Sequence record: PZ019084.1
Source of the DNA: a phage
Reading direction: 5' to 3' (one strand)
DNA length: 64,000 nucleotides
The position numbers were made by a program, and so were the translations under genes. Each line of letters opens with the position of its first letter. Within the stretch, counting starts at the first letter, position 1. The notes below the pieces were generated by a model that saw nothing but the letters and a program-made list of their open reading frames with translations, had not been told where the DNA came from and made no database searches. Below, in pieces: positions 3,325-54,368 of this stretch.

Positions 3325-3650
3325 TTAAACCATCCTTTAATACGCTGCCACAAAGTTTTCTGTTGAGCTTTGTTTACGCCAATTGAGCGAATAACTGGTT
3401 GAGATTCCTGGAATTCTTTATAATCAGCAAGGTAAATTTCATAAGCTGCATCTGTAAATGAACTTATCGCTGACATAAAATTATTGCGAATACCTACTGG
3501 AGCATCTTTACTTTCACGAATAATCATGTATTTACCAGTTTTAATCTTTACGATAGTTCCAAGATAAGCTCCGTGGTACCAGATATCCCACCCCTCTTGA
3601 GTGGGTTCTGCACAACGACGAAGTTCATTGATAATTTCTAACTTGTTCAT
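3321..3650 (-). CDS. hypothetical protein (motA.1 position)
   Basis: 109-aa ORF immediately downstream of motA on the same strand. Confidence 0.55.
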
Positions 3651-3660
3651 TATTTATTCC

Positions 3661-4296
3661 TCACAGTTTAGATGCTACGGTGATTACTGCTTCAATGTTT
3701 TCTGCCGAGCGTTTAATGTCAAGATACACATTACCGTTTTTAGCGATTTTACATGACATTCCGATATCAGTAAATTTCTGAATATGATGTTCCATCATTT
3801 TGTATCCAAAAATTCGCATATTTCCATTGTTGTTAATTTCAAAATTACGAATTCCGTGAGTGCGTTTTTCTAAAATAGCGAGATAGTTACTGCGATAAGT
3901 TTCAACCTTTTTAAGAACAAATCCATTTTCATCTAAAAGTTTTAACATGAAGTCTTTATCTTCTTCCATATCGGAAGTAATCTCACGAGCTTTACGAGTT
4001 GCTCGTTTTTTCAGCAGTTCAGGAGCATTTTCCTGTGCGTATAAAGTTGCTGCATTTGAAATAATATCCTGAGCTTCACCTGTAATGATTAATCCATCAC
4101 CAGATTTCTCCACCAGGCCTTTTTTAATCAATACCCCAATATTACTATTAACTACTGCATTACCTAAATCTGGATGCACCTCACGAACTTCTGCAGCTGT
4201 AATGAAATCTTTCTTAGCAATGGTAATTAAAATCGCAGCAGTTTTTTCATTCAGAACATCGTTAGAAGCTTTGATGATGTAAGTTACTTTAGACAT
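3661..4296 (-). CDS. motA: middle-mode transcription activator MotA
   Basis: 211 aa starting MSKVTYIIKASNDVLNEKTAAILITIAKKDF, matching T4 MotA; SD ggag upstream. Confidence 0.9.
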   Translation of the reverse strand: MSKVTYIIKASNDVLNEKTAAILITIAKKDFITAAEVREVHPDLGNAVVNSNIGVLIKKGLVEKSGDGLIITGEAQDIISNAATLYAQENAPELLKKRATRKAREITSDMEEDKDFMLKLLDENGFVLKKVETYRSNYLAILEKRTHGIRNFEINNNGNMRIFGYKMMEHHIQKFTDIGMSCKIAKNGNVYLDIKRSAENIEAVITVASKL

Positions 4297-10066: not shown

Positions 10067-12244
10067 TTAGGCCGCAAGGGCCTTCATAGTTTTAGCGATT
10101 TGGGAAACTTCATCATCACTTAAAGAGTTGCGATAACCGATGAAGTCGGAAACAATACGGAATTTCTTGGTAAACTCAGCAACCATTTTATCACTGTTTT
10201 TTAAAGCATTACGTGACAATTCATCAAAAAGATTAGTTACGGTCCAGATGTCATGACCGATGGTATCTTTTCCACCATTGAAATATACACCCCGCAATGA
10301 ACTAACCATATTACCAAGGCGAGTATATTCTTCGGAAACTTCATCTGTACTGAAATATTTCATCATAAAATTAAGTTCAGGATACTTAATAATTTTATCA
10401 ATATATCGCTGAGCTGAACTTGAATAACCTACATACTTATCATAATCTACATCGTCAAAAGCATCTACATATAAATCACGTAGAGTTTCAAAAATACATT
10501 GACACTGGCCGAGTTCTTTTACCTTTTTCTGCAAAAGCGGACGAATAACATAAAATTCATTAATGCCAATAATATTAGCCATACGAGTCAAAATACTCGT
10601 AGATGGATGACAAAGCGATGTAGTACCATCCATAGAGAAAATATCAGAACGATGCATATACGCTACATAACCAGTAATTTCATCTGCTTCTGACGTAAGT
10701 GTAAACAGTTCCTCTTTTTCCCAGCGCCCGTCTTTAATTTCAAACTTAAATGCAGTAGCAGCTTTAGGACGAGGAGCTGTACTTTTTACTGCCTTTGGAA
10801 TATAACTTTTAACTAAAGCTTCAATTTCTGACAAATAATGAATGTTAACTTCATCACTTTCAAACATTGCCATAATATCAGGGAGTAAATCAATCTGCGA
10901 TTCTACTTCCGGATTAATAAACAAAAGGCGTTCATTGTGATGAATATTCAAAGTGTTATTAAATTCACTATCATCTAACGCGCGTGCTAATCCACGGACA
11001 ATATTAACACGATTTTTAGTATTATCAATAACAATATTAATTTTTGTCGTATTAATACCAAACAGACGATAGCTTGATGCAACGGCTGAAGTTTCATGAC
11101 TTTGCTTAATGCGTTTCAGTCGAGGGTCAAGATTTACTTCATACACAACCCCTGCATTGCATAACTTACTGTCAGGTTCAAACATGCTCTGCATCTTTTT
11201 ATATGACAGATTTTTAGTCGTGAATTTGACTGAATTGCTAATCATATAATCTCGAGCAGAATATCCCATCTTCATCAATTCACGGTATGTATGACGAGGA
11301 GATGTAGATTCTTTAAATCGTTTTACATCTTCATTGAATGCCTTCTCACTAAGCTCTTTAACACGCTCAATAATATTTTTACGAGTACGATCATCTAGTG
11401 AAAGAGCCTCGCGCGATGGAGCAATATCAAGTGAACCCATTGGAAACTTAATATAATTCACTTCATTGCGAATGCTTAACCAATTACGGTCTCTAATAAC
11501 ACCTTCGATAGGATAAACAATGCCGCCATAGATAGCATACAATCCACCACGATCGGGCCAGTATCTTTCTGGATTTACGCCGTAATAGTCATCAAAATCT
11601 GGAAAATAATCAATTTCGCGGTCAAGACCATTAATGATAGCCAAATCTTTGAATGGTCGCATGATATAAGAAACTTCATAAGCAAAGTTTCTAAAGTCCT
11701 TTTCTTCAACTGGAACTACAATTTCAATACCAGTTTTATCGTCTGGACCCATTTCTTTTACGAATGTAGGTTTAATTTGCGGACCATCACCATCCATGTA
11801 AGCTACATAACCACGAATTTCACCTTTATGATATGAAGTAATACTAAATGTATCAGTATAACTAAACGGAGATTTAGAACCTAAACCAAATCCACCAATG
11901 AAATCATTAGATTCAGCCTTAGATGAACTAAAGTATGAATTATACAACCCAGGAGAATTATCATCACCCTGAATATCAAAATCGCTCATACCTGGACCAA
12001 AATCTCGGCAAACAAATCGCGGATCTAATCGTCCTGGAACTTGAATGATAAATTTTTCAGGATTTCCATTAAGAGCATGGGCATCAATCATGTTGGTAAT
12101 CAATTCACGGACTACTGCGCGAATCTTGTTTGTATACAAATCAGATGACAGAATTTTGAATACTTTAGGAGATGCTGTGATGCTAAATGCCTTTGATTTA
12201 GAACCATTGCCAAGAATTGTTTCTTTTTCAGTGGTGATAATCAT
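10067..12244 (-). CDS. rIIA: rIIA protein
   Basis: 725 aa, same length as T4 rIIA; GHKL-like N-terminal region. Confidence 0.9.
10069..10083 (-). other. GC hairpin (GCAA loop) between rIIA stop and rIIB SD
   Basis: aggccgcaagggcct abutting rIIA stop, followed on the mRNA by aataaggaaaatt ATG. Confidence 0.45.
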
Positions 12245-12254
12245 AATTTCCTCA

Positions 12255-12458
12255 TTAATTCATATTGCGTTTAATAACTTCAGCAACTTCTAGTAATTCA
12301 TCTTTAGTTGCGGTGTCGGATTGAATTTTATCTCTAATATCCTTAAAGCGGTTTTTAAACTCTTCGGCTTCTCCCATATCGAAAAAGCGTTGAATGATTC
12401 TATATTCTCGATGAACTGCTTTATCAAAAAGTTCTAAATTTACTCTATATGATTTCAT
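12255..12458 (-). CDS. hypothetical protein (rIIA.1 position)
   Basis: 67-aa ORF; early promoter immediately upstream. Confidence 0.55.
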
Positions 12459-12481
12459 TTCAATATCCTCATTTGCCCAAT

Positions 12482-12514
12482 TAATTATACCACATCCTTG
12501 TGGTAAAGTAAACT
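12482..12514 (-). promoter_or_regulatory. T4-type early promoter
   Basis: minus strand GTTTAC (plus 12508-12513, overlapping gene 39 stop), 18-nt spacer, perfect TATAAT (plus 12484-12489). Confidence 0.6.
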
Positions 12515-14330
12515 ATTGGCTCATCCATTCTTTACGAAGGTCAGCATTATCTCCCATGAGCATTTCAAAAAGCTCTTTCCAGTTCTCAGGAAGTTTAACA
12601 ACATCATATACTGGGTTTTGAATCATCTCACGATATTCAGATTTTTCCAAAGAGCCAAGTCCCTTAATATAACGGATGCTATGTTTAGGTAGAGCATCCT
12701 TGACACTCTCATATTCAGCGACTGTATAAAACCATTCTTGTTTTTTACCGACCTGAGCGATGATTACAGGAGTTTTGACGAAGCGAATTCTTCCTTGATC
12801 AAACAGTTCTGGCCAATTACTAAAAAATCCGAGCAGAGAAGGATAAATGCTCCCTAGACCATCATGGTCAGCATCAGTCATAATAGCAATATTATGATAA
12901 TTCAAGTTTTCAGCTTTTTCACCAAGAACTAATCCAGTGATTGCGCAAATGTCAAACAGTTCTTTGTTTTTAAGCATATCAGCATATGACATACCCCAGC
13001 TATTAAGAACTTTACCACGCAATGGATAACCACCATGAAGTTCTTTATCACGAACATCAATAAGATATCCGATAGCGGAATCACCCTCAGTCAAGAAAAG
13101 AGTAGTGTCAGCATCTTTACCACAAAGATTCGCTTTAATATGTTTATGAACCTTAGCTTTAGAAGCCTTTTTAGCTGCTTTAGTTTCTGCTGCTTTTTCT
13201 GCCGCCAATTTACGAGCCAAGGCAGCTTCAATGATTGGCATTAAAATTGCTTCATTATTTAAAATAGCGCGTGAAATCTTTTTAGCATCAAGCTGAATAT
13301 GACTACGAATTTCACCAAAAGGAGAAGTCAAACGCTCTTTAGTCTGAGAATCAAATCGCATGTTTTTCATATCACGAACAAACATAACGATAGTCAAACA
13401 TTCTTTAACACGTGCTTTAGTTACATCAATTTTGAACTTGCGTTTGATTTGTGGAATAAGGTCTTCACAAATATCATCCATAACACAGTCAATATGATGG
13501 CCACCATTCTTAGTATGAATGTTATTGACGTATGTTAATTGACGAAAACCATCAGGTGAACGACCAACCGCAATAGAACAATTTTCTTGTTCTTGAACGA
13601 TAGCATGCTCATCATATTGGCGTGCATATTTCTTAAAATTACCCTGAACCTTTTTACCGTTAAAGGTAAATTGAATATCAGGATAAACTACTGCAAGCGT
13701 CTGGAGACGATCCAGTGTAATGTCAAGATAAACTTGAGATAGCTCATTAGTTTCAAATGACATAAAATCAGGAATGAAAGTAACACGAGTTCCTTTCCAT
13801 TTTCCAGGAATAGTTTCCCATGATTTATTTTCCATGCCATTTGAACAACGAACTACAATATTATTTTGACCGTCGCCAGTTTCACCGACAAACATCACAG
13901 AAAAAATGTTAGTTAAACTAGAACCAACACCATTCATACCGCCAGTGACGCGTTCTTTATCATCACCAAAGTTACCACCTGCTTTTGGAATAGTCCAGGC
14001 AGCAACAGGACCAGGAATTTCTTCACCAGTAGGTGTTTTAACCATCGCTTGTGGAATACCACGACCATTATCTTCAACTGTTACTTGATTGTTTTTAATA
14101 GTAACATTAATTTTATTTGCGAATTTAAACTTAGTACGAATACCTTCATCTACTGAGTTATCGATAATTTCATCAATAAGCTTAACAAGACCAGGTACAT
14201 ACTGAACACTTTCCCATTTACCAAACAGAAAGCGCTCATGCATTTCATTAGCAGAAGAGCCAATATACATGCCGCTACGCTTTTTGATATGTTCAATATC
14301 GCTCAGAATTTTAATTTCATTCTTAATCAT
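12513..14330 (-). CDS. 39: DNA topoisomerase II large subunit (GyrB-like), fused 39+60 form
   Basis: ~605 aa single ORF with ATPase N-terminus and TOPRIM C-terminus; ORF track begins one codon earlier at GTG 14333. Confidence 0.9.
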   Translation of the reverse strand: MIKNEIKILSDIEHIKKRSGMYIGSSANEMHERFLFGKWESVQYVPGLVKLIDEIIDNSVDEGIRTKFKFANKINVTIKNNQVTVEDNGRGIPQAMVKTPTGEEIPGPVAAWTIPKAGGNFGDDKERVTGGMNGVGSSLTNIFSVMFVGETGDGQNNIVVRCSNGMENKSWETIPGKWKGTRVTFIPDFMSFETNELSQVYLDITLDRLQTLAVVYPDIQFTFNGKKVQGNFKKYARQYDEHAIVQEQENCSIAVGRSPDGFRQLTYVNNIHTKNGGHHIDCVMDDICEDLIPQIKRKFKIDVTKARVKECLTIVMFVRDMKNMRFDSQTKERLTSPFGEIRSHIQLDAKKISRAILNNEAILMPIIEAALARKLAAEKAAETKAAKKASKAKVHKHIKANLCGKDADTTLFLTEGDSAIGYLIDVRDKELHGGYPLRGKVLNSWGMSYADMLKNKELFDICAITGLVLGEKAENLNYHNIAIMTDADHDGLGSIYPSLLGFFSNWPELFDQGRIRFVKTPVIIAQVGKKQEWFYTVAEYESVKDALPKHSIRYIKGLGSLEKSEYREMIQNPVYDVVKLPENWKELFEMLMGDNADLRKEWMSQ

Positions 14331-14382
14331 CACTTATCCTCGTTTGGTTTCGGGAATATTATACTCCGGTAATCATAAAGCT

Positions 14383-14400
14383 AAAGGCCCGAAGGCCTTT
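14383..14400 (-). other. GC hairpin (CGAA loop) immediately after stop of lipoprotein gene
   Basis: aaaggcccgaaggccttt. Confidence 0.4.
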
Positions 14401-14672
14401 TATTTAAAACGGATAGTCGAATCCTTGAAGAATAGACCAGAACATACAGTTCCTTCTACTTTCTGCCCGGTAGGTCCAATAGCACGAAATCCAGTATGTT
14501 GGAAATCATTTTCAGAGCAACCGAACCAATTATATCCAGTGATTTCAATATTAGTAAAACCACTTGAAGACAAAACTTTGGTTGCATTATCAGCATCAGT
14601 ACATCCTACTAAAGATACTGCTAATACTAATGCCGCGATAGAACGATTAACATATTTCATAATTTCACTCAA
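14400..14672 (-). CDS. putative lipoprotein
   Basis: 90 aa; signal peptide with lipobox LVGC (AALVLAVSLVGCTD). Confidence 0.55.
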   Translation of the reverse strand: MSEIMKYVNRSIAALVLAVSLVGCTDADNATKVLSSSGFTNIEITGYNWFGCSENDFQHTGFRAIGPTGQKVEGTVCSGLFFKDSTIRFK

Positions 14673-15036
14673 ATTTAATGGCTTGAAGAAGACTAATAAT
14701 TCTCAAGCGGCTTCTTTCATCTTTAACCGTAAAAGAAAGAGGGTCGCCAGATTTCATAGTGATGGTGCATTCAAAACTAAAATCTTCAGGAACTTCTTCG
14801 AAGAAGTCAAATTCTTCATCATATATTAGAACATTACTCTGAAAACTGTGAAGAATTTTTCCGTCATTTCCAGATGCTGTACTAATCATTGTAACATTAT
14901 TACCTTTCATATCTTCAACGATAAATTCGCTTGTAGATATTACGGCATTAATAGAACCATTCCTATAAATAGAAGAAAGCAGATATTTCTTTTCTTCACC
15001 TTCACGAACACGATATTTCTTACCGATTTTAAACAT
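14665..15036 (-). CDS. hypothetical protein
   Basis: 123-aa ORF. Confidence 0.5.
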   Translation of the reverse strand: MFKIGKKYRVREGEEKKYLLSSIYRNGSINAVISTSEFIVEDMKGNNVTMISTASGNDGKILHSFQSNVLIYDEEFDFFEEVPEDFSFECTITMKSGDPLSFTVKDERSRLRIISLLQAIKFE

Positions 15037-15038
15037 AA

Positions 15039-15215
15039 TTATCCTTTAAGTAAGTCGTAAAATCCACCATTCACATGCTTAGGAGCAGAAGGCCGACGAG
15101 TAGACAGACGATGACATTTAGGGCAAACATCATTTTCTCGTTCAGAAATCTTTTTAATTTTTTCGTATTCATGCCCGCAATCTTCGGATTGGCATTTATA
15201 ATCATACATTGGCAT
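15039..15215 (-). CDS. zinc-ribbon protein (~58 aa, below ORF-track cutoff)
   Basis: hand-translated MPMYDYKCQSEDCGHEYEKIKKISERENDVCPKCHRLSTRRPSAPKHVNGGFYDLLKG with CxxxxC...CxxC; SD aaggaa. Confidence 0.5.
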   Translation of the reverse strand: MPMYDYKCQSEDCGHEYEKIKKISERENDVCPKCHRLSTRRPSAPKHVNGGFYDLLKG

Positions 15216-15217
15216 AA

Positions 15218-15637
15218 TTATTCCTTAAAGTGTGCTTTCAACATCTGATACAAGGACCATGCCTGTTCATTATTTTCAATAGTAACTTTCATGACAGGAA
15301 ATTCTGTGAAATCTTCTATTTGTTCTTGCTCTTCCTGCTCTTGCTCTTCAGATGCCTGATATGGATTTTCAACTTCATCAAAGAACCCAGCTTCGTTAGT
15401 AGAGAGCCAGATAAAGTTTTCGTCAAGGATATCACCATGTGTTGCATATCCAACTGTGCCGGTAGATGTCACAATTTTAGTAGGACGCCCGTAATAGTCA
15501 ACATCTAAAATTTTAAAAGGTTCCATACCTAAACGTCGTGCATAGATTCCGTTATCAGTATGGTCTTTAATAAAATTTTCTTGAGCCTGTTTATTTTTAA
15601 ATTGATACCATTTATTAACTTCAAATTTAATAGCCAT
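15218..15637 (-). CDS. hypothetical acidic protein
   Basis: 139 aa with [10 protein letters not shown] acidic stretch. Confidence 0.55.
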
Positions 15638-15852
15638 TAATAAATTTCCTTCCAGTAAGTTGTACCGTCTTCAGTGATTTCACGGAATACACCATAAATC
15701 GGTTGTTTATCACCAACCTTTTCATACACATAAACCGAAGTCAAGTGAGTAAACTTAGCAGTGTGCTCCTTTTGAACTACTACCAAATCTGGATCGAATA
15801 ATACATCTTCAAATTCGTCATTAGTGCATTTCTGAACAGTTTTACGTTTCAT
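15637..15852 (-). CDS. hypothetical protein
   Basis: 71-aa ORF, ATGA overlap with downstream gene. Confidence 0.5.
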
Positions 15853-16032
15853 TACAATTTCCTCATTAATTGAACAGTGGAGCGATGCGTTTCAGAAGAG
15901 TCAGTACCTTTGGCAAATTTTCCATTTTATTCTCCAAGTTGTTTTCTATATCAGTAGTTGATATTGATATAGTACCATAATCAACTACTGATGTATATAG
16001 TTTTATGAAAAAATTTTAAGCTTTATGCAAAT

Positions 16033-16452
16033 TTATGCTAAAGCTGCTTCGCACCATTTTTTAATTTGGAATTCAGGAACTACCATGAACTGGCCTGCAA
16101 AAACAATATTGTAGAGCTTGACGCCATCTTCTACCCAACGGTCCGAAATAAAACCAGCGACTTGATTCGTTGTCCATGGAGTTCCATCTGTTGCTGCCGC
16201 AATTGTGAATTTATGGTCTTTTACAACTAAAACTGAAGAACAAAGTTTCCATTTAAACGCGCTTTCTTCTGGCTCAATGAATTGGCTTGAGACATAACCA
16301 ATGTTACCATCAGCGTCACGAACTTTAACCTCGTTACGACCAAAAACTGGATCACTTACAGAAAGAACTTCAACCAGCTTTCCTGCAACTTTAGAACGAG
16401 AAGCAACGGATACATATACGTAATCACCGGTAGATAGATTTACAATATTCAT
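16033..16452 (-). CDS. MotB-like paralog
   Basis: 139 aa; N-terminal KOW-like segment and C-terminal DRWVEDGVKLYNIVFAGQF motif shared with adjacent 162-aa ORF. Confidence 0.5.
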   Translation of the reverse strand: MNIVNLSTGDYVYVSVASRSKVAGKLVEVLSVSDPVFGRNEVKVRDADGNIGYVSSQFIEPEESAFKWKLCSSVLVVKDHKFTIAAATDGTPWTTNQVAGFISDRWVEDGVKLYNIVFAGQFMVVPEFQIKKWCEAALA

Positions 16453-16468
16453 AATAATTCCTTAAACT

Positions 16469-16957
16469 TTATGCATAGAGAGCTTTGCTATAGTGTTTAA
16501 TCCAGCTTTCAGGAATGACTTTATATGTTCCTAAAAATACCACATTATACAGCTTAACACCGTCTTCTACCCACTGGTCGGTAATGTATGCACACATAGC
16601 ACGAGTATAAACAGCCGCTCCATCATCTTTGATAAATTTAAATTCACAAGGAGCAATGAACTTAATAGCCTGACCGAGTTTCCACTTAAAGTCTACACCT
16701 ACATGCGAAGTATCAATCGTTTCAATTCCTTTAGCAGGAACAGCTTTCAAAAACGCAGACTCAAGAAATTTCGCACGAACATAGCCAAACTGAGGTTTAG
16801 ACTTTCCATCTTTAGGAATGATACGCACTTTTACTTCAGAATCTTCATCTTTAACACCGTGTTTAAGCTGAATGCTTACAATTTCAACCAATTTTCCTGC
16901 TGCTTTAGAGCGGGATTTATCAGATACACGAGCTAATTCACCAATATTAATAATCAT
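16469..16957 (-). CDS. motB: MotB-like protein
   Basis: 162 aa, same length as T4 MotB; position upstream of dexA; early promoter directly upstream. Confidence 0.55.
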   Translation of the reverse strand: MIINIGELARVSDKSRSKAAGKLVEIVSIQLKHGVKDEDSEVKVRIIPKDGKSKPQFGYVRAKFLESAFLKAVPAKGIETIDTSHVGVDFKWKLGQAIKFIAPCEFKFIKDDGAAVYTRAMCAYITDQWVEDGVKLYNVVFLGTYKVIPESWIKHYSKALYA

Positions 16958-16999
16958 AGTTATCTCTCACTTGTTAAAAAGATTTTATACTCCACAGGA

Positions 17000-17032
17000 C
17001 CATTATACTCTGGTCCCAAGAGTTTGTAAACT
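17000..17032 (-). promoter_or_regulatory. T4-type early promoter
   Basis: minus strand GTTTAC (plus 17026-17031), 18-nt spacer with inverted repeat ggacca/tggtcc, TATAAT (plus 17002-17007). Confidence 0.55.
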
Positions 17033-17054
17033 ATTAATTCAAAATAGCTACTTT

Positions 17055-17738
17055 TTATCGTTTTGTTGGAAGGGATAGAGGATCGCAATCTTCCTCTGAC
17101 GGAGCATCTTCAAGACCCATAGCATATCGTAAAGCATACTTCATCATCAGGATGTCTTTCGCACAGTCATGAATAGAATCATGTGCAACGAATCCATCTA
17201 AAGTTCCCTTTGGAAGAGGACACGTGGTCATATCACGAACAAGAAGAAGTGCTTCAATTCTGGTACGAATATCACGCTGATTCCAGAATTTACATGGTTC
17301 TAACTTAAATGTGTCAAGTTCATTCTCAGAAACGCCATTAAGACGTTGAATATCGCGAATGAGATCGACTAAAATTGGAAAATCAAATGACATTCCACGG
17401 CACCAGCCTTGAGATTTCCAAGGATCGATGTTATGCGCATTGATGTAATCATTAAATTTTGCAATACCATCGATGGTGCTTACATCTTCATCTGATGGTG
17501 CAATATTTTTTCGAGCTTCAGGAGACTGATTTTTCCACCATTCAATAGTGCTTTTAGTAAAAAGACGATGTCCTTTTTGGCTTTTTAAATCAAATTTGAT
17601 TTTAATGCCACGTGAAACTAATTCATCAAATGTTTCAACTACTTCTGGATTAGGGTCAAAGGCAATAACAGCCAAATCAATAACAGCTGCTTTTTCACCA
17701 CTTCCCATTGTTTCAAAATCTATAATAAAATCAAACAT
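17055..17738 (-). CDS. dexA: exonuclease A (DEDD family)
   Basis: 227 aa, same length as T4 DexA; N-terminal DFETMG exonuclease motif. Confidence 0.85.
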   Translation of the reverse strand: MFDFIIDFETMGSGEKAAVIDLAVIAFDPNPEVVETFDELVSRGIKIKFDLKSQKGHRLFTKSTIEWWKNQSPEARKNIAPSDEDVSTIDGIAKFNDYINAHNIDPWKSQGWCRGMSFDFPILVDLIRDIQRLNGVSENELDTFKLEPCKFWNQRDIRTRIEALLLVRDMTTCPLPKGTLDGFVAHDSIHDCAKDILMMKYALRYAMGLEDAPSEEDCDPLSLPTKR

Positions 17739-53842: not shown

Positions 53843-54085
53843 TTATTCCTTAATTCCTAGTACTTGTTTAAAAGTCTCGTCGTAATCAAGACTTTGACCT
53901 GTTTGTTCTTTATGTTTGTATATAATATCACTTACTTCTGATAGCATATTTTTATATGAACGAGTTAAAGCAGATTTAAGCACGCTGTATCTATCAGGAA
54001 ATTTACCATGTTCATTATAATACGCTATTGCTAATTCACGGACTGCCCTTTCAGCAGTCTCCATATATTCTTTACGCTTTGTCAT
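53843..54085 (-). CDS. hypothetical protein
   Basis: 80-aa ORF. Confidence 0.5.
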
Positions 54086-54368
54086 TTTCTTCTCGGTTAA
54101 ATCGGTGTTTGCAATGACGGCATTTATAACGAAGATTACTAGTCTGCCAATGGACTAATTGAACCTGTTCAGTACCGCATTCAGGACAATTAGGAACGTT
54201 TTTAGAAGCCCTTTCGCGACGTTCAACCATAGCCATAATGGCATCCCAAGCTGGAGGTTTAAAATCTAAATCGTCAGTAACTAGCAGTCCTTTATCAAAC
54301 CCAGCGCATGGAGTCCATTCAGGAAAATCTGAAGCTTCGGCAATATCTTCTAATAGACGCTTTTTCAT
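54072..54368 (-). CDS. zinc-ribbon protein
   Basis: 98 aa with CPEC...CRHC pair. Confidence 0.5.

Follow-up and report, generated by a model that had tools for sequence, protein, structure and literature searches.

The question raised by this locus was whether a reading frame of only 58 codons, squeezed between two larger ones, is a gene at all, and what its product does. The window analysed, i.e. the whole stretch of phage DNA (64 000 nucleotides, record PZ019084.1), is from a Tequatrovirus and is ~96–97% identical to many T2/RB-type phages. An original prediction, made from the letters alone, had placed an unannotated, regulatory 58-aa zinc-ribbon protein at 15039–15215 between two hypothetical genes, with a Shine–Dalgarno sequence (SD) and an exact filling of the gap. 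It had named conservation in related phages as a check and frame disruption in close relatives as a reason for rejection, and had mentioned a second zinc-ribbon ORF at 54072–54368. Sequence reading bore out the first ORF; its strand, which had been left unstated, is the minus strand. The features of the ORF were as follows.

15039..15215, minus strand: CDS of the 58-aa ORF (assigned as gene 39.2 ortholog), 58 aa plus a TAA stop, from sequence reading and the ORF list
15222..15226, minus strand: SD of the 58-aa ORF, AAGGA, read from the sequence, within the goF 3' codons AAG GAA TAA
15093..15215, minus strand: zinc-ribbon domain, residues 1–41, PF09723 and TIGR02605 both matching these residues
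15192–15194 (C8), 15177–15179 (C13), 15123–15125 (C31) and 15114–15116 (C34), minus strand: Cys codons of the zinc ribbon
15048..15089, minus strand: C-terminal tail block, residues 43–56 (SAPKHVNGGFYDLL), identical in 21/21 Tequatrovirus/Mosigvirus-type and similar sequences

The ORF starts with an ATG at 15213–15215, stops with a TAA at 15039–15041 and encodes MPMYDYKCQSEDCGHEYEKIKKISERENDVCPKCHRLSTRRPSAPKHVNGGFYDLLKG (58 aa). The distance from the final G of the AAGGA to the ATG is 7 nt. The goF stop (15218–15220) is followed by a 2-nt spacer and this ATG; the stop of the ORF is followed by a 2-nt spacer and the downstream ATG (15034–15036), and the final codons of the ORF form the SD (AAAGGA) of the downstream goF paralog. 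The SD and the exact fit into the gap were thus both present, with 2-nt spacers on either side. The cysteines are arranged as C8/C13 (CX4C) and C31/C34 (CX2C) with 17 residues between the pairs, and the domain opens at the initiator Met with MPMYDYKC (FmdB-family pattern MPxYxYxC). In the profile search, the protein scored 45.7 bits against Pfam PF09723 (Zn_ribbon_8, cut-off 34.4) and 44.9 bits against NCBIfam TIGR02605 (FmdB family zinc ribbon protein, cut-off 31.3), so that the four-cysteine ribbon claimed for it passes two curated cut-offs.

Length alone proves nothing for a 58-aa ORF, since the ORF list of this AT-rich DNA contains dozens of spurious ORFs of 30–90 aa. The ORF was counted as a gene because of its conservation, as judged from dN/dS, codon-position pattern, intact frames and family thresholds. 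The exact 58-aa protein was present on 689 contigs of a public collection. With tblastn it matched 886 phage records (identity ≥99% in 216), and the conservation in related phages named as a check was thereby borne out. In all 31 relatives fetched the frame was intact and the SD conserved; the copies compared came from 30 IMG/VR loci, ime09 and a resequenced T4, and none was disrupted. T-even-type loci keep the same junction before the ORF, ...tttaaggaataatt ATG, given also as ...TTTAAGGAATAATT ATG. Among 20 distinct T-even-type nucleotide sequences (141 pairs, Nei–Gojobori), the median dN/dS was 0.042 and the maximum 0.17, and the variable columns at codon positions 1/2/3 numbered 11/7/39. 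Homologs of 39.2 at 40–56% identity are carried by distant phages, and cellular relatives exist as well. One could still suppose that the ORF is not a gene, being a chance ORF in AT-rich intergenic DNA, or that the true product is an overlapping 44-aa ORF in the other frame (15071..15205, minus strand). Spurious ORFs of comparable length do lie nearby, the alternative frame has only one or two stops, and the frameshifted annotated proteins of the phages vB_SsoM_113 and Manna enter that frame. Against this stand the dN/dS of 0.04 in the 58-aa frame, the concentration of variation at third codon positions, the curated family thresholds passed by the 58-aa protein, the homologs in distant phages and in cells, and the genetic phenotype of T4 gene 39.2. 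We regard such a supposition as next to impossible; the codon-position pattern, together with the family matches, refutes both of its forms. The 58-aa ORF is a genuine, strongly conserved gene.

Frame disruption in close relatives was surveyed in 60 records sampled evenly down the ranking of the 886 phage records. Disruptions, all of them single-base differences, were seen only in the old T4 reference and in 2/60 sampled records. These two, Shigella phage vB_SsoM_113 and Salmonella phage Manna, have the gene split in two by a common 1-nt deletion at codon 32, from which annotated 47-aa proteins result that continue into the alternative frame; given this deletion, 39.2 is either dispensable or mis-sequenced in them. 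One metagenomic protein (P0008) changes frame in the region encoding KEYEKIKK. Gene 39.2 is annotated as 45 aa in NC_000866/AF158101, the T4 reference, and likewise in M89919 of 1992; its last 13 codons lie in another frame there. At least 11 resequenced T4-type records contradict the T4 reference at 39.2 and are mutually consistent (96.4% identity): nine named T4 or T4T (HM137666, KJ477684-6, MT984581, OL964735, OZ209023, OZ209057 and OZ035787), together with RB55 and RB59. On alignment with these, the reference contains one extra T and several substitutions. MT984581 has a complete 177-nt 39.2 gene with the product MPLYDYKCQSKDCAKEYEKIKKISERDTDVCPDCHRLAVRLVSAPKHVNGGFYDLLKG. A length of 58 aa for T4 Gp39.2 is also given by Georgopoulos (PMC5153855). 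The differences in the T4 reference at 39.2 were taken to be sequence errors in the record. NC_000866/AF158101 shows 39.1 truncated too; old sequence errors would account for both the 45-aa 39.2 and the shortened 39.1, and the T4 reference record is probably wrong at both genes. Frame disruption was rejected as an argument against the gene, being confined to rare single-base events and to a reference contradicted by at least 11 records.

The identity of the gene was sought in its surroundings. The gene order was taken from the ORF list and PHROG matches.

10067-12244, minus strand: rIIA
between rIIA and 60+39, minus strand: rIIA.1
12513-14333, minus strand: fused 60+39 topoisomerase subunit
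14400..14660, minus strand: gene 39.1 ortholog, 86 aa from the ATG at 14660 (PHROG 902)
14665..15036, minus strand: goF paralog (RB69ORF005c type), 123 aa, downstream of the 58-aa ORF (PHROG 622; ime09 annotation note RB69ORF005c)
15218..15637, minus strand: goF (comC-alpha), 139 aa, upstream of the 58-aa ORF (PHROG 622 and goF PHROGs)
15637-15852, minus strand: cef
after cef in the listed order, minus strand: motB-like, motB, dexA, dda
54072..54368, minus strand: second ORF of the prediction, 98 aa, nrdC.2 ortholog (PHROG 1474, function not assigned)

The neighbours, supposed to be hypothetical genes, are goF upstream and a goF paralog downstream. ime09, T4 and RB69 have goF annotated at the corresponding position, and the gp39.1 gene measures 261 nt in ime09 and in resequenced T4. 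In the window the order is 39, 39.1, goF paralog, the 58-aa ORF, goF, cef, and the gene at the place of the ORF in ime09, resequenced T4 and RB69 is 39.2. Its placement is conserved with respect to these three: it shares their strand, follows goF directly and precedes 39.1 and 39. The phage T2 entry (UniRef A0A2Z5WKF2_BPT2) is identical to the 58-aa protein, RB69 ORF006 is 93% identical over 57 residues and resequenced T4 Gp39.2 is 81% identical over 58/58 residues. The studied T4 and RB69 proteins are 57–59 aa long and similar to the window's protein over the full length. Judged by identity and gene order, the 58-aa ORF of this T2-like Tequatrovirus is orthologous and syntenic to T4 gene 39.2 (Gp39.2, NwgI), an already known gene. 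The description 'unannotated' does not apply in homologous records, which carry the names 39.2, gp39.2, zinc ribbon domain-containing protein or FmdB-like transcriptional regulator. In T-even phages, gene 39.2 is recognised as accessory, and its function has been published for T4 and RB69. A 25-kb query from the window and the nrdC.2 query both hit T4-like Klebsiella phages, yet these are absent among the 39.2 matches, which fits an accessory rather than a core role. The second zinc-ribbon ORF, at 54072–54368, is real and has a C-terminal CPEC...CRHC pair, with no Pfam family above cut-off; it lies on the minus strand, not on the strand implied, and its family (nrdC.2, PHROG 1474) is unrelated to 39.2. 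A scan of positions 12400–17200 for promoters and terminators gave no signal, with 17 promoter-like sites vs 17.4 expected. One promoter-like site stands out, an 11/12 match upstream of motB (17030–17002).

The regulatory role attributed to the protein was weighed next to its family name. According to that reading, the 58-aa protein is a small transcriptional regulator which binds DNA or RNA polymerase via its zinc ribbon. PHROG 1076 and many RefSeq records use the name 'FmdB-like transcriptional regulator', the UniRef cluster of the 58-aa protein is named 'anti-repressor', and in Foldseek the fold weakly and non-significantly resembled RbpA and Rpo12, two zinc ribbons associated with RNA polymerase (E ≥ 0.7). 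However, every Foldseek match had E ≥ 0.47, no DNA-binding domain was found above the Pfam cut-off in the 58-aa protein (the best, Ogr_Delta, reached 13.8 bits vs 26.3), and both experimentally studied members of the family act in protein folding. The FmdB label in TIGR02605/Pfam derives from one putative regulator and spread from there by similarity. A literature search on FmdB, zinc ribbon and Zn_ribbon_8 found no relevant paper. A role in transcription was considered very improbable, and 'FmdB-like transcriptional regulator' is a propagated name without evidence behind the label. The word 'regulatory' in the original prediction found no support: it draws on this name, the studied T4 and RB69 orthologs modulate GroEL, and no DNA-binding domain was detected. 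The misleading label stands on hundreds of phage records and would be better replaced by 'GroEL modulator Gp39.2/NwgI, FmdB/Ruc-family zinc ribbon'.

A role in chaperonin function has been described for the orthologs from T4 and RB69. Ang and Georgopoulos are said to have first selected the gene from RB69 as a GroEL modulator; the T4, RB43 and RB49 homologs reportedly behaved alike, the suppression of groEL/groES mutants was reportedly allele-specific and overproduction reportedly toxic. In his own account (PMC5153855, citing Ang and Georgopoulos, 2012, Genetics 190:989, PMID 22234860), Georgopoulos presents T4 Gp39.2 as a 58-aa modulator of GroES/GroEL. Genetics and biochemistry are stated there to suggest that it shifts GroEL to an open conformation which binds host- or phage-encoded co-chaperones; certain groEL mutant hosts are stated to block a T4 39.2 deletion completely (PMC5153855). 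PMC4396842 gives the same account of Gp39.2 as a GroES/GroEL modulator. In a search of the transcriptome and proteome literature on T4 39.2 nothing relevant was found, and the gene is absent from the main text of PMC12407873. With 93% identity to the protein of RB69, 81% to that of T4 and an identical tail, the window's protein very probably does as these orthologs do. We hold with good confidence that it is the 39.2/NwgI ortholog, a tailed zinc-ribbon protein that would act on host GroEL/GroES. Gene 39.2 would be expressed within the packed minus-strand string cef, goF, 39.2, goF paralog, 39.1, 39 and translated from its own SD inside the goF 3' end. As with the T4 and RB69 orthologs, its product would act on host GroEL/GroES and move GroEL to an open conformation able to bind GroES or gp31. 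The outcome would be an efficient folding of phage proteins on hosts with a suboptimal chaperonin.

The build of the protein was read from a structural model and from the conservation pattern. The AlphaFold2 model, built from a 49-sequence alignment, had a mean pLDDT of 78. It predicts the strands E3–8, E16–20, E28–30 and E37–40, with a pLDDT of ~86 over residues 1–40; in the model, these four strands are in the zinc-ribbon arrangement. Of the four cysteines, C8 and C34 never vary, while C13 and C31 are kept in ≥90% of the 49 relatives. The product is modelled as a four-Cys zinc ribbon (residues 1–41, presumably with one Zn) followed by a flexible 17-residue tail. This tail, partly hydrophobic (GGFYDLL), has a low pLDDT (56–63) and is conserved in sequence. 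Residues 43–56 are the longest invariant stretch among close T-even-type orthologs, and T-even phages all carry the tail motif APKHVNGGFYDLL unchanged. Where close T-even-type sequences differ, the substituted positions belong to the ribbon surface and the linker (residues 3, 11, 14–15, 22, 27–28, 33 and 37–42). GGFY is invariant even in phage homologs of 40–56% identity; in many cellular relatives, the motif KG-x-G-[FW]-Y is aligned with it. From this pattern, we propose that the ribbon may serve as a scaffold and the conserved tail as the contact element. A mimicry of the GroES mobile loop (GGIVL) by GGFYDLL was retained as speculation only; since G-x-G-[FW]-Y also occurs widely in the cellular part of the family, the motif is not phage-specific. 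Foldseek comparison of the model with the PDB gave nothing at E ≤ 0.001; as the matches were generic zinc ribbons only, structure adds no functional information. A profile search of solved structures yielded spurious C2H2-repeat matches and generic ribosomal or RNA-polymerase zinc ribbons, which were rejected.

A second experimentally studied protein of the same Pfam family is Ruc (Rv0991c) of M. tuberculosis, which consists of an N-terminal four-Cys zinc ribbon of ~50 residues and a disordered C-terminus (Becker et al., 2020, PMC7448276). It binds one zinc, as determined by ICP-MS. Oxidation turns it into a holdase, an activity for which the C-terminal part is required; it also promotes DnaK/DnaJ/GrpE-dependent refolding, and DnaK co-purifies with it (PMC7448276). 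Its gene is repressed by HrcA jointly with the Hsp60/Hsp10 genes, and ruc genes often adjoin chaperone genes, including groES/groEL in some phyla (PMC7448276). The C-terminal region of Ruc homologs comprises 7–61 residues and, in the authors' survey, Ruc was rare in E. coli-type hosts (PMC7448276). Neither phages nor FmdB are mentioned in that paper, and a literature search found no paper linking the T4 Gp39.2 and Ruc literatures. For comparison, Ruc residues 1–49 (MPTYSYECTQC...) were rebuilt from the primers of PMC7448276, five residues being filled in beyond what the primers give. With these five residues filled in, the segment matches PF09723 at 55.1 bits, and a phage 39.2 profile aligned to a cellular profile including the same Ruc segment with a probability of 99.3% (hhalign, E 3e-20, 54 columns). 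By these profile matches, Gp39.2 is homologous with the Ruc chaperone family; this homology is the only part of the analysis that goes beyond the existing literature found. Cellular relatives were also inspected at 80 sampled loci. At two of them, in an uncultured deltaproteobacterium and a Desulfobacteraceae MAG (L052 and L094), groES-groEL follows the family gene immediately and is on its strand; the upstream neighbours of the two family genes differ. One locus of the 80 has dnaK within 4 kb and one a J-domain gene ~0.5 kb upstream. The 58-aa ORF has no chaperone gene next to it within the window, its neighbours being goF, the goF paralog, cef and 39.1. Because Ruc belongs to the same Pfam family and two of 80 relatives stand upstream of groES-groEL, PF09723 appears tied to chaperones and not to transcription.

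This kinship allows a different account of Gp39.2, as a Ruc-like stand-alone holdase whose zinc ribbon would be a redox switch: on oxidation or zinc loss, it would take up unfolded clients and hand them on to DnaK or GroEL. The groEL/groES genetics would then reflect a lowered or re-routed client load and not a direct change in GroEL conformation. Such an account could draw on the common family, on the profile alignment, which runs through the GGFY/GSGWY motif, and on the properties of Ruc itself (single zinc, required C-terminal part, co-purification with DnaK, rarity in E. coli-type hosts; PMC7448276). The Gp39.2 authors, however, read their data as a shift in the GroEL open/closed equilibrium (PMC5153855, PMC4396842). 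The Gp39.2 tail has only 17 residues (within the 7–61 range of Ruc homologs), is conserved and is partly hydrophobic, whereas that of Ruc is long, hydrophilic and disordered. Allele-specific suppression, as reportedly found in the 2012 study, argues for a direct interaction. The stand-alone holdase was judged unlikely, and modulation of GroEL was kept as the preferred function. A wider proposal, tentative and on balance improbable, would make Gp39.2 a phage-borne miniature member of the Ruc family and the whole of PF09723 part of the chaperone network. The GGFY tail would contact chaperonins or clients, with the ribbon as a switch that responds to redox state or zinc; T-even phages would bring a copy into mostly Ruc-less hosts and tune GroEL with it. 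PF09723, the 'FmdB-like regulators', comprises tens of thousands of small bacterial proteins, which would be a chaperone family as a whole if this were true. T4 Gp39.2 and M. tuberculosis Ruc are its only two experimentally studied members, and both act in protein folding; this provides a testable hypothesis of function for a large uncharacterised zinc-ribbon family.

The window's protein was finally compared with the known systems. T4 Gp39.2 is like it in length (58 aa), in Cys pattern and in the C-terminal SAPKHVNGGFYDLLKG, and its gene is like the window's in its position between goF and 39.1/39. It differs by 11 substitutions, most of which lie at the surface of the ribbon or within the linker (residues 37–42, STRRP vs AVRLV). 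A goF paralog lies between 39.2 and 39.1 in the window's phage, whereas T4 has none there. RB69 ORF006c has the same flanking genes as in the window, including the goF paralog ORF005c; its protein has 59 aa (ending in KKG) vs 58 aa. RB69 is a Mosigvirus and the window a Tequatrovirus, yet the window's allele is nearer to that of RB69 than to that of T4, which fits a mosaic exchange.

With respect to the FmdB family (TIGR02605, CxxC_CxxC_SSSS; Zn_ribbon_8), the protein passes both cut-offs with a domain that runs from the initiator Met. Its first knuckle is CX4C, a form found in a minority of relatives, vs CXXC in the family, and its tail is short and conserved vs the long, low-complexity, Ser/Gly-rich tail of many cellular members. 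T4 gp31 is the phage co-chaperonin that replaces GroES. Like Gp39.2, it is a small phage protein adapting host GroEL to the needs of the phage, with no sequence or fold relation between the two. It is a GroES-like heptameric lid, essential for gp23 folding; unlike gp31, Gp39.2 is a monomer-sized zinc ribbon, dispensable on wild-type hosts. Ruc and Gp39.2 have in common PF09723, the MPxYxYxC start, Cys pairs 17 residues apart, a G-x-GFY motif past the ribbon and a link to the protein-folding machinery. Ruc is an oxidation-activated holdase which works with DnaK, whereas Gp39.2 is described as a conformational modulator of GroEL.

The reading frames of 39.2 and 39.1 were compared between T4 records over positions 3399-3840 of the T4 reference (L002, NC_000866.4) and 621-1060 of a resequenced T4 (L003, MT984581.1). 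In the reference, the annotated products of 39.2 and 39.1 are both truncated, at 45 and 65 aa, versus 58 and 86 aa in resequenced T4 genomes. Here the reference differs from the latter by one additional T and by several substitutions; these differences are taken to be old sequencing errors persisting in RefSeq. A 1-nt deletion at codon 32 (TGCCCTAAATG region) is common to Shigella phage vB_SsoM_113 and Salmonella phage Manna:

301-473 of loci L034 (LR746311.1) and L035 (PP987310.1), 39.2 with the 1-nt deletion

Because of this deletion, the annotated 39.2 proteins of these two phages are 47 aa long and end in a hydrophobic out-of-frame tail. The deletion may be a sequencing artefact common to both records, or it may truly inactivate the gene.

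In the phage collection, T4-like phages of Klebsiella and Enterobacter gave numerous matches to a 25-kb query from the window and to an nrdC.2 query (154-162 Klebsiella records), and they were not among the top organisms listed for 39.2 matches. Judged from these sequence matches, this distribution suggests that 39.2 is accessory, and that the T4-like phages of these two host genera either lack it or carry a highly diverged version.

The original prediction had also pointed to a second zinc-ribbon ORF, which was borne out as a gene and corresponds to nrdC.2:

54072-54368, minus strand, nrdC.2 ortholog (98 aa, PHROG 1474)

A CPEC...CRHC motif lies near its C-terminus; every match to the Pfam zinc-ribbon families was under its cut-off. 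Matches to nrdC.2 were found in 1051 phage records, including those of Klebsiella T4-like phages.

Cellular genes of the FmdB/Ruc zinc-ribbon family were located in their own neighbourhoods. In two deltaproteobacterial genomes (L052, 6001-8406; L094, 6001-8509), the family gene immediately precedes groES-groEL and shares their strand, and the genes farther upstream are unrelated. In locus L103 the family gene has a J-domain gene about 0.5 kb upstream, and in locus L091 it has dnaK about 3 kb upstream.

Compared with ime09 and most close relatives, 210 bp are missing from the window between cef and the motB-like gene. The missing segment belongs to the interior of a short ORF that encodes 89 aa in ime09; in the window, only 19 in-frame codons of it are left (MENLPKVLTLLKRIAPLFN). 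Similar sequences are present at both end-points (GCCAAAGGT...CTCTTCTGAA). A near-perfect inverted repeat, also kept in ime09, lies directly upstream of the remnant:

15866-15925, minus strand, 19-codon remnant ORF, inside the gap 15853-16032
about 15950-15993, inverted repeat (CATCAGTAGTTGAT ... ATCAACTACTGAT)

The genes around 39.2 were assigned as follows:

12513-14333, minus strand, topoisomerase large subunit, fused 60+39, one gene of about 605 aa
14400-14660, minus strand, 39.1 ortholog
14665-15036, minus strand, goF paralog of RB69ORF005c type (PHROG 622)
15218-15637, minus strand, goF (PHROG 622)

The N-terminus of the 39.1 ortholog (MKYVNRSIAALVLAVSLVGC) resembles a lipoprotein signal peptide in which LVGC would be the lipobox; the protein had no match to any family of known function. 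The topoisomerase large subunit is fused as in T2 and ime09, and the T4-specific split, mobA remnant and translational-bypass segment of gene 60 are all absent from it. The two genes flanking 39.2 are paralogous, and both also gave weaker matches to the goF mRNA-metabolism-modulator PHROGs. T4 has goF only, whereas the window carries goF and the second, RB69ORF005c-type copy.
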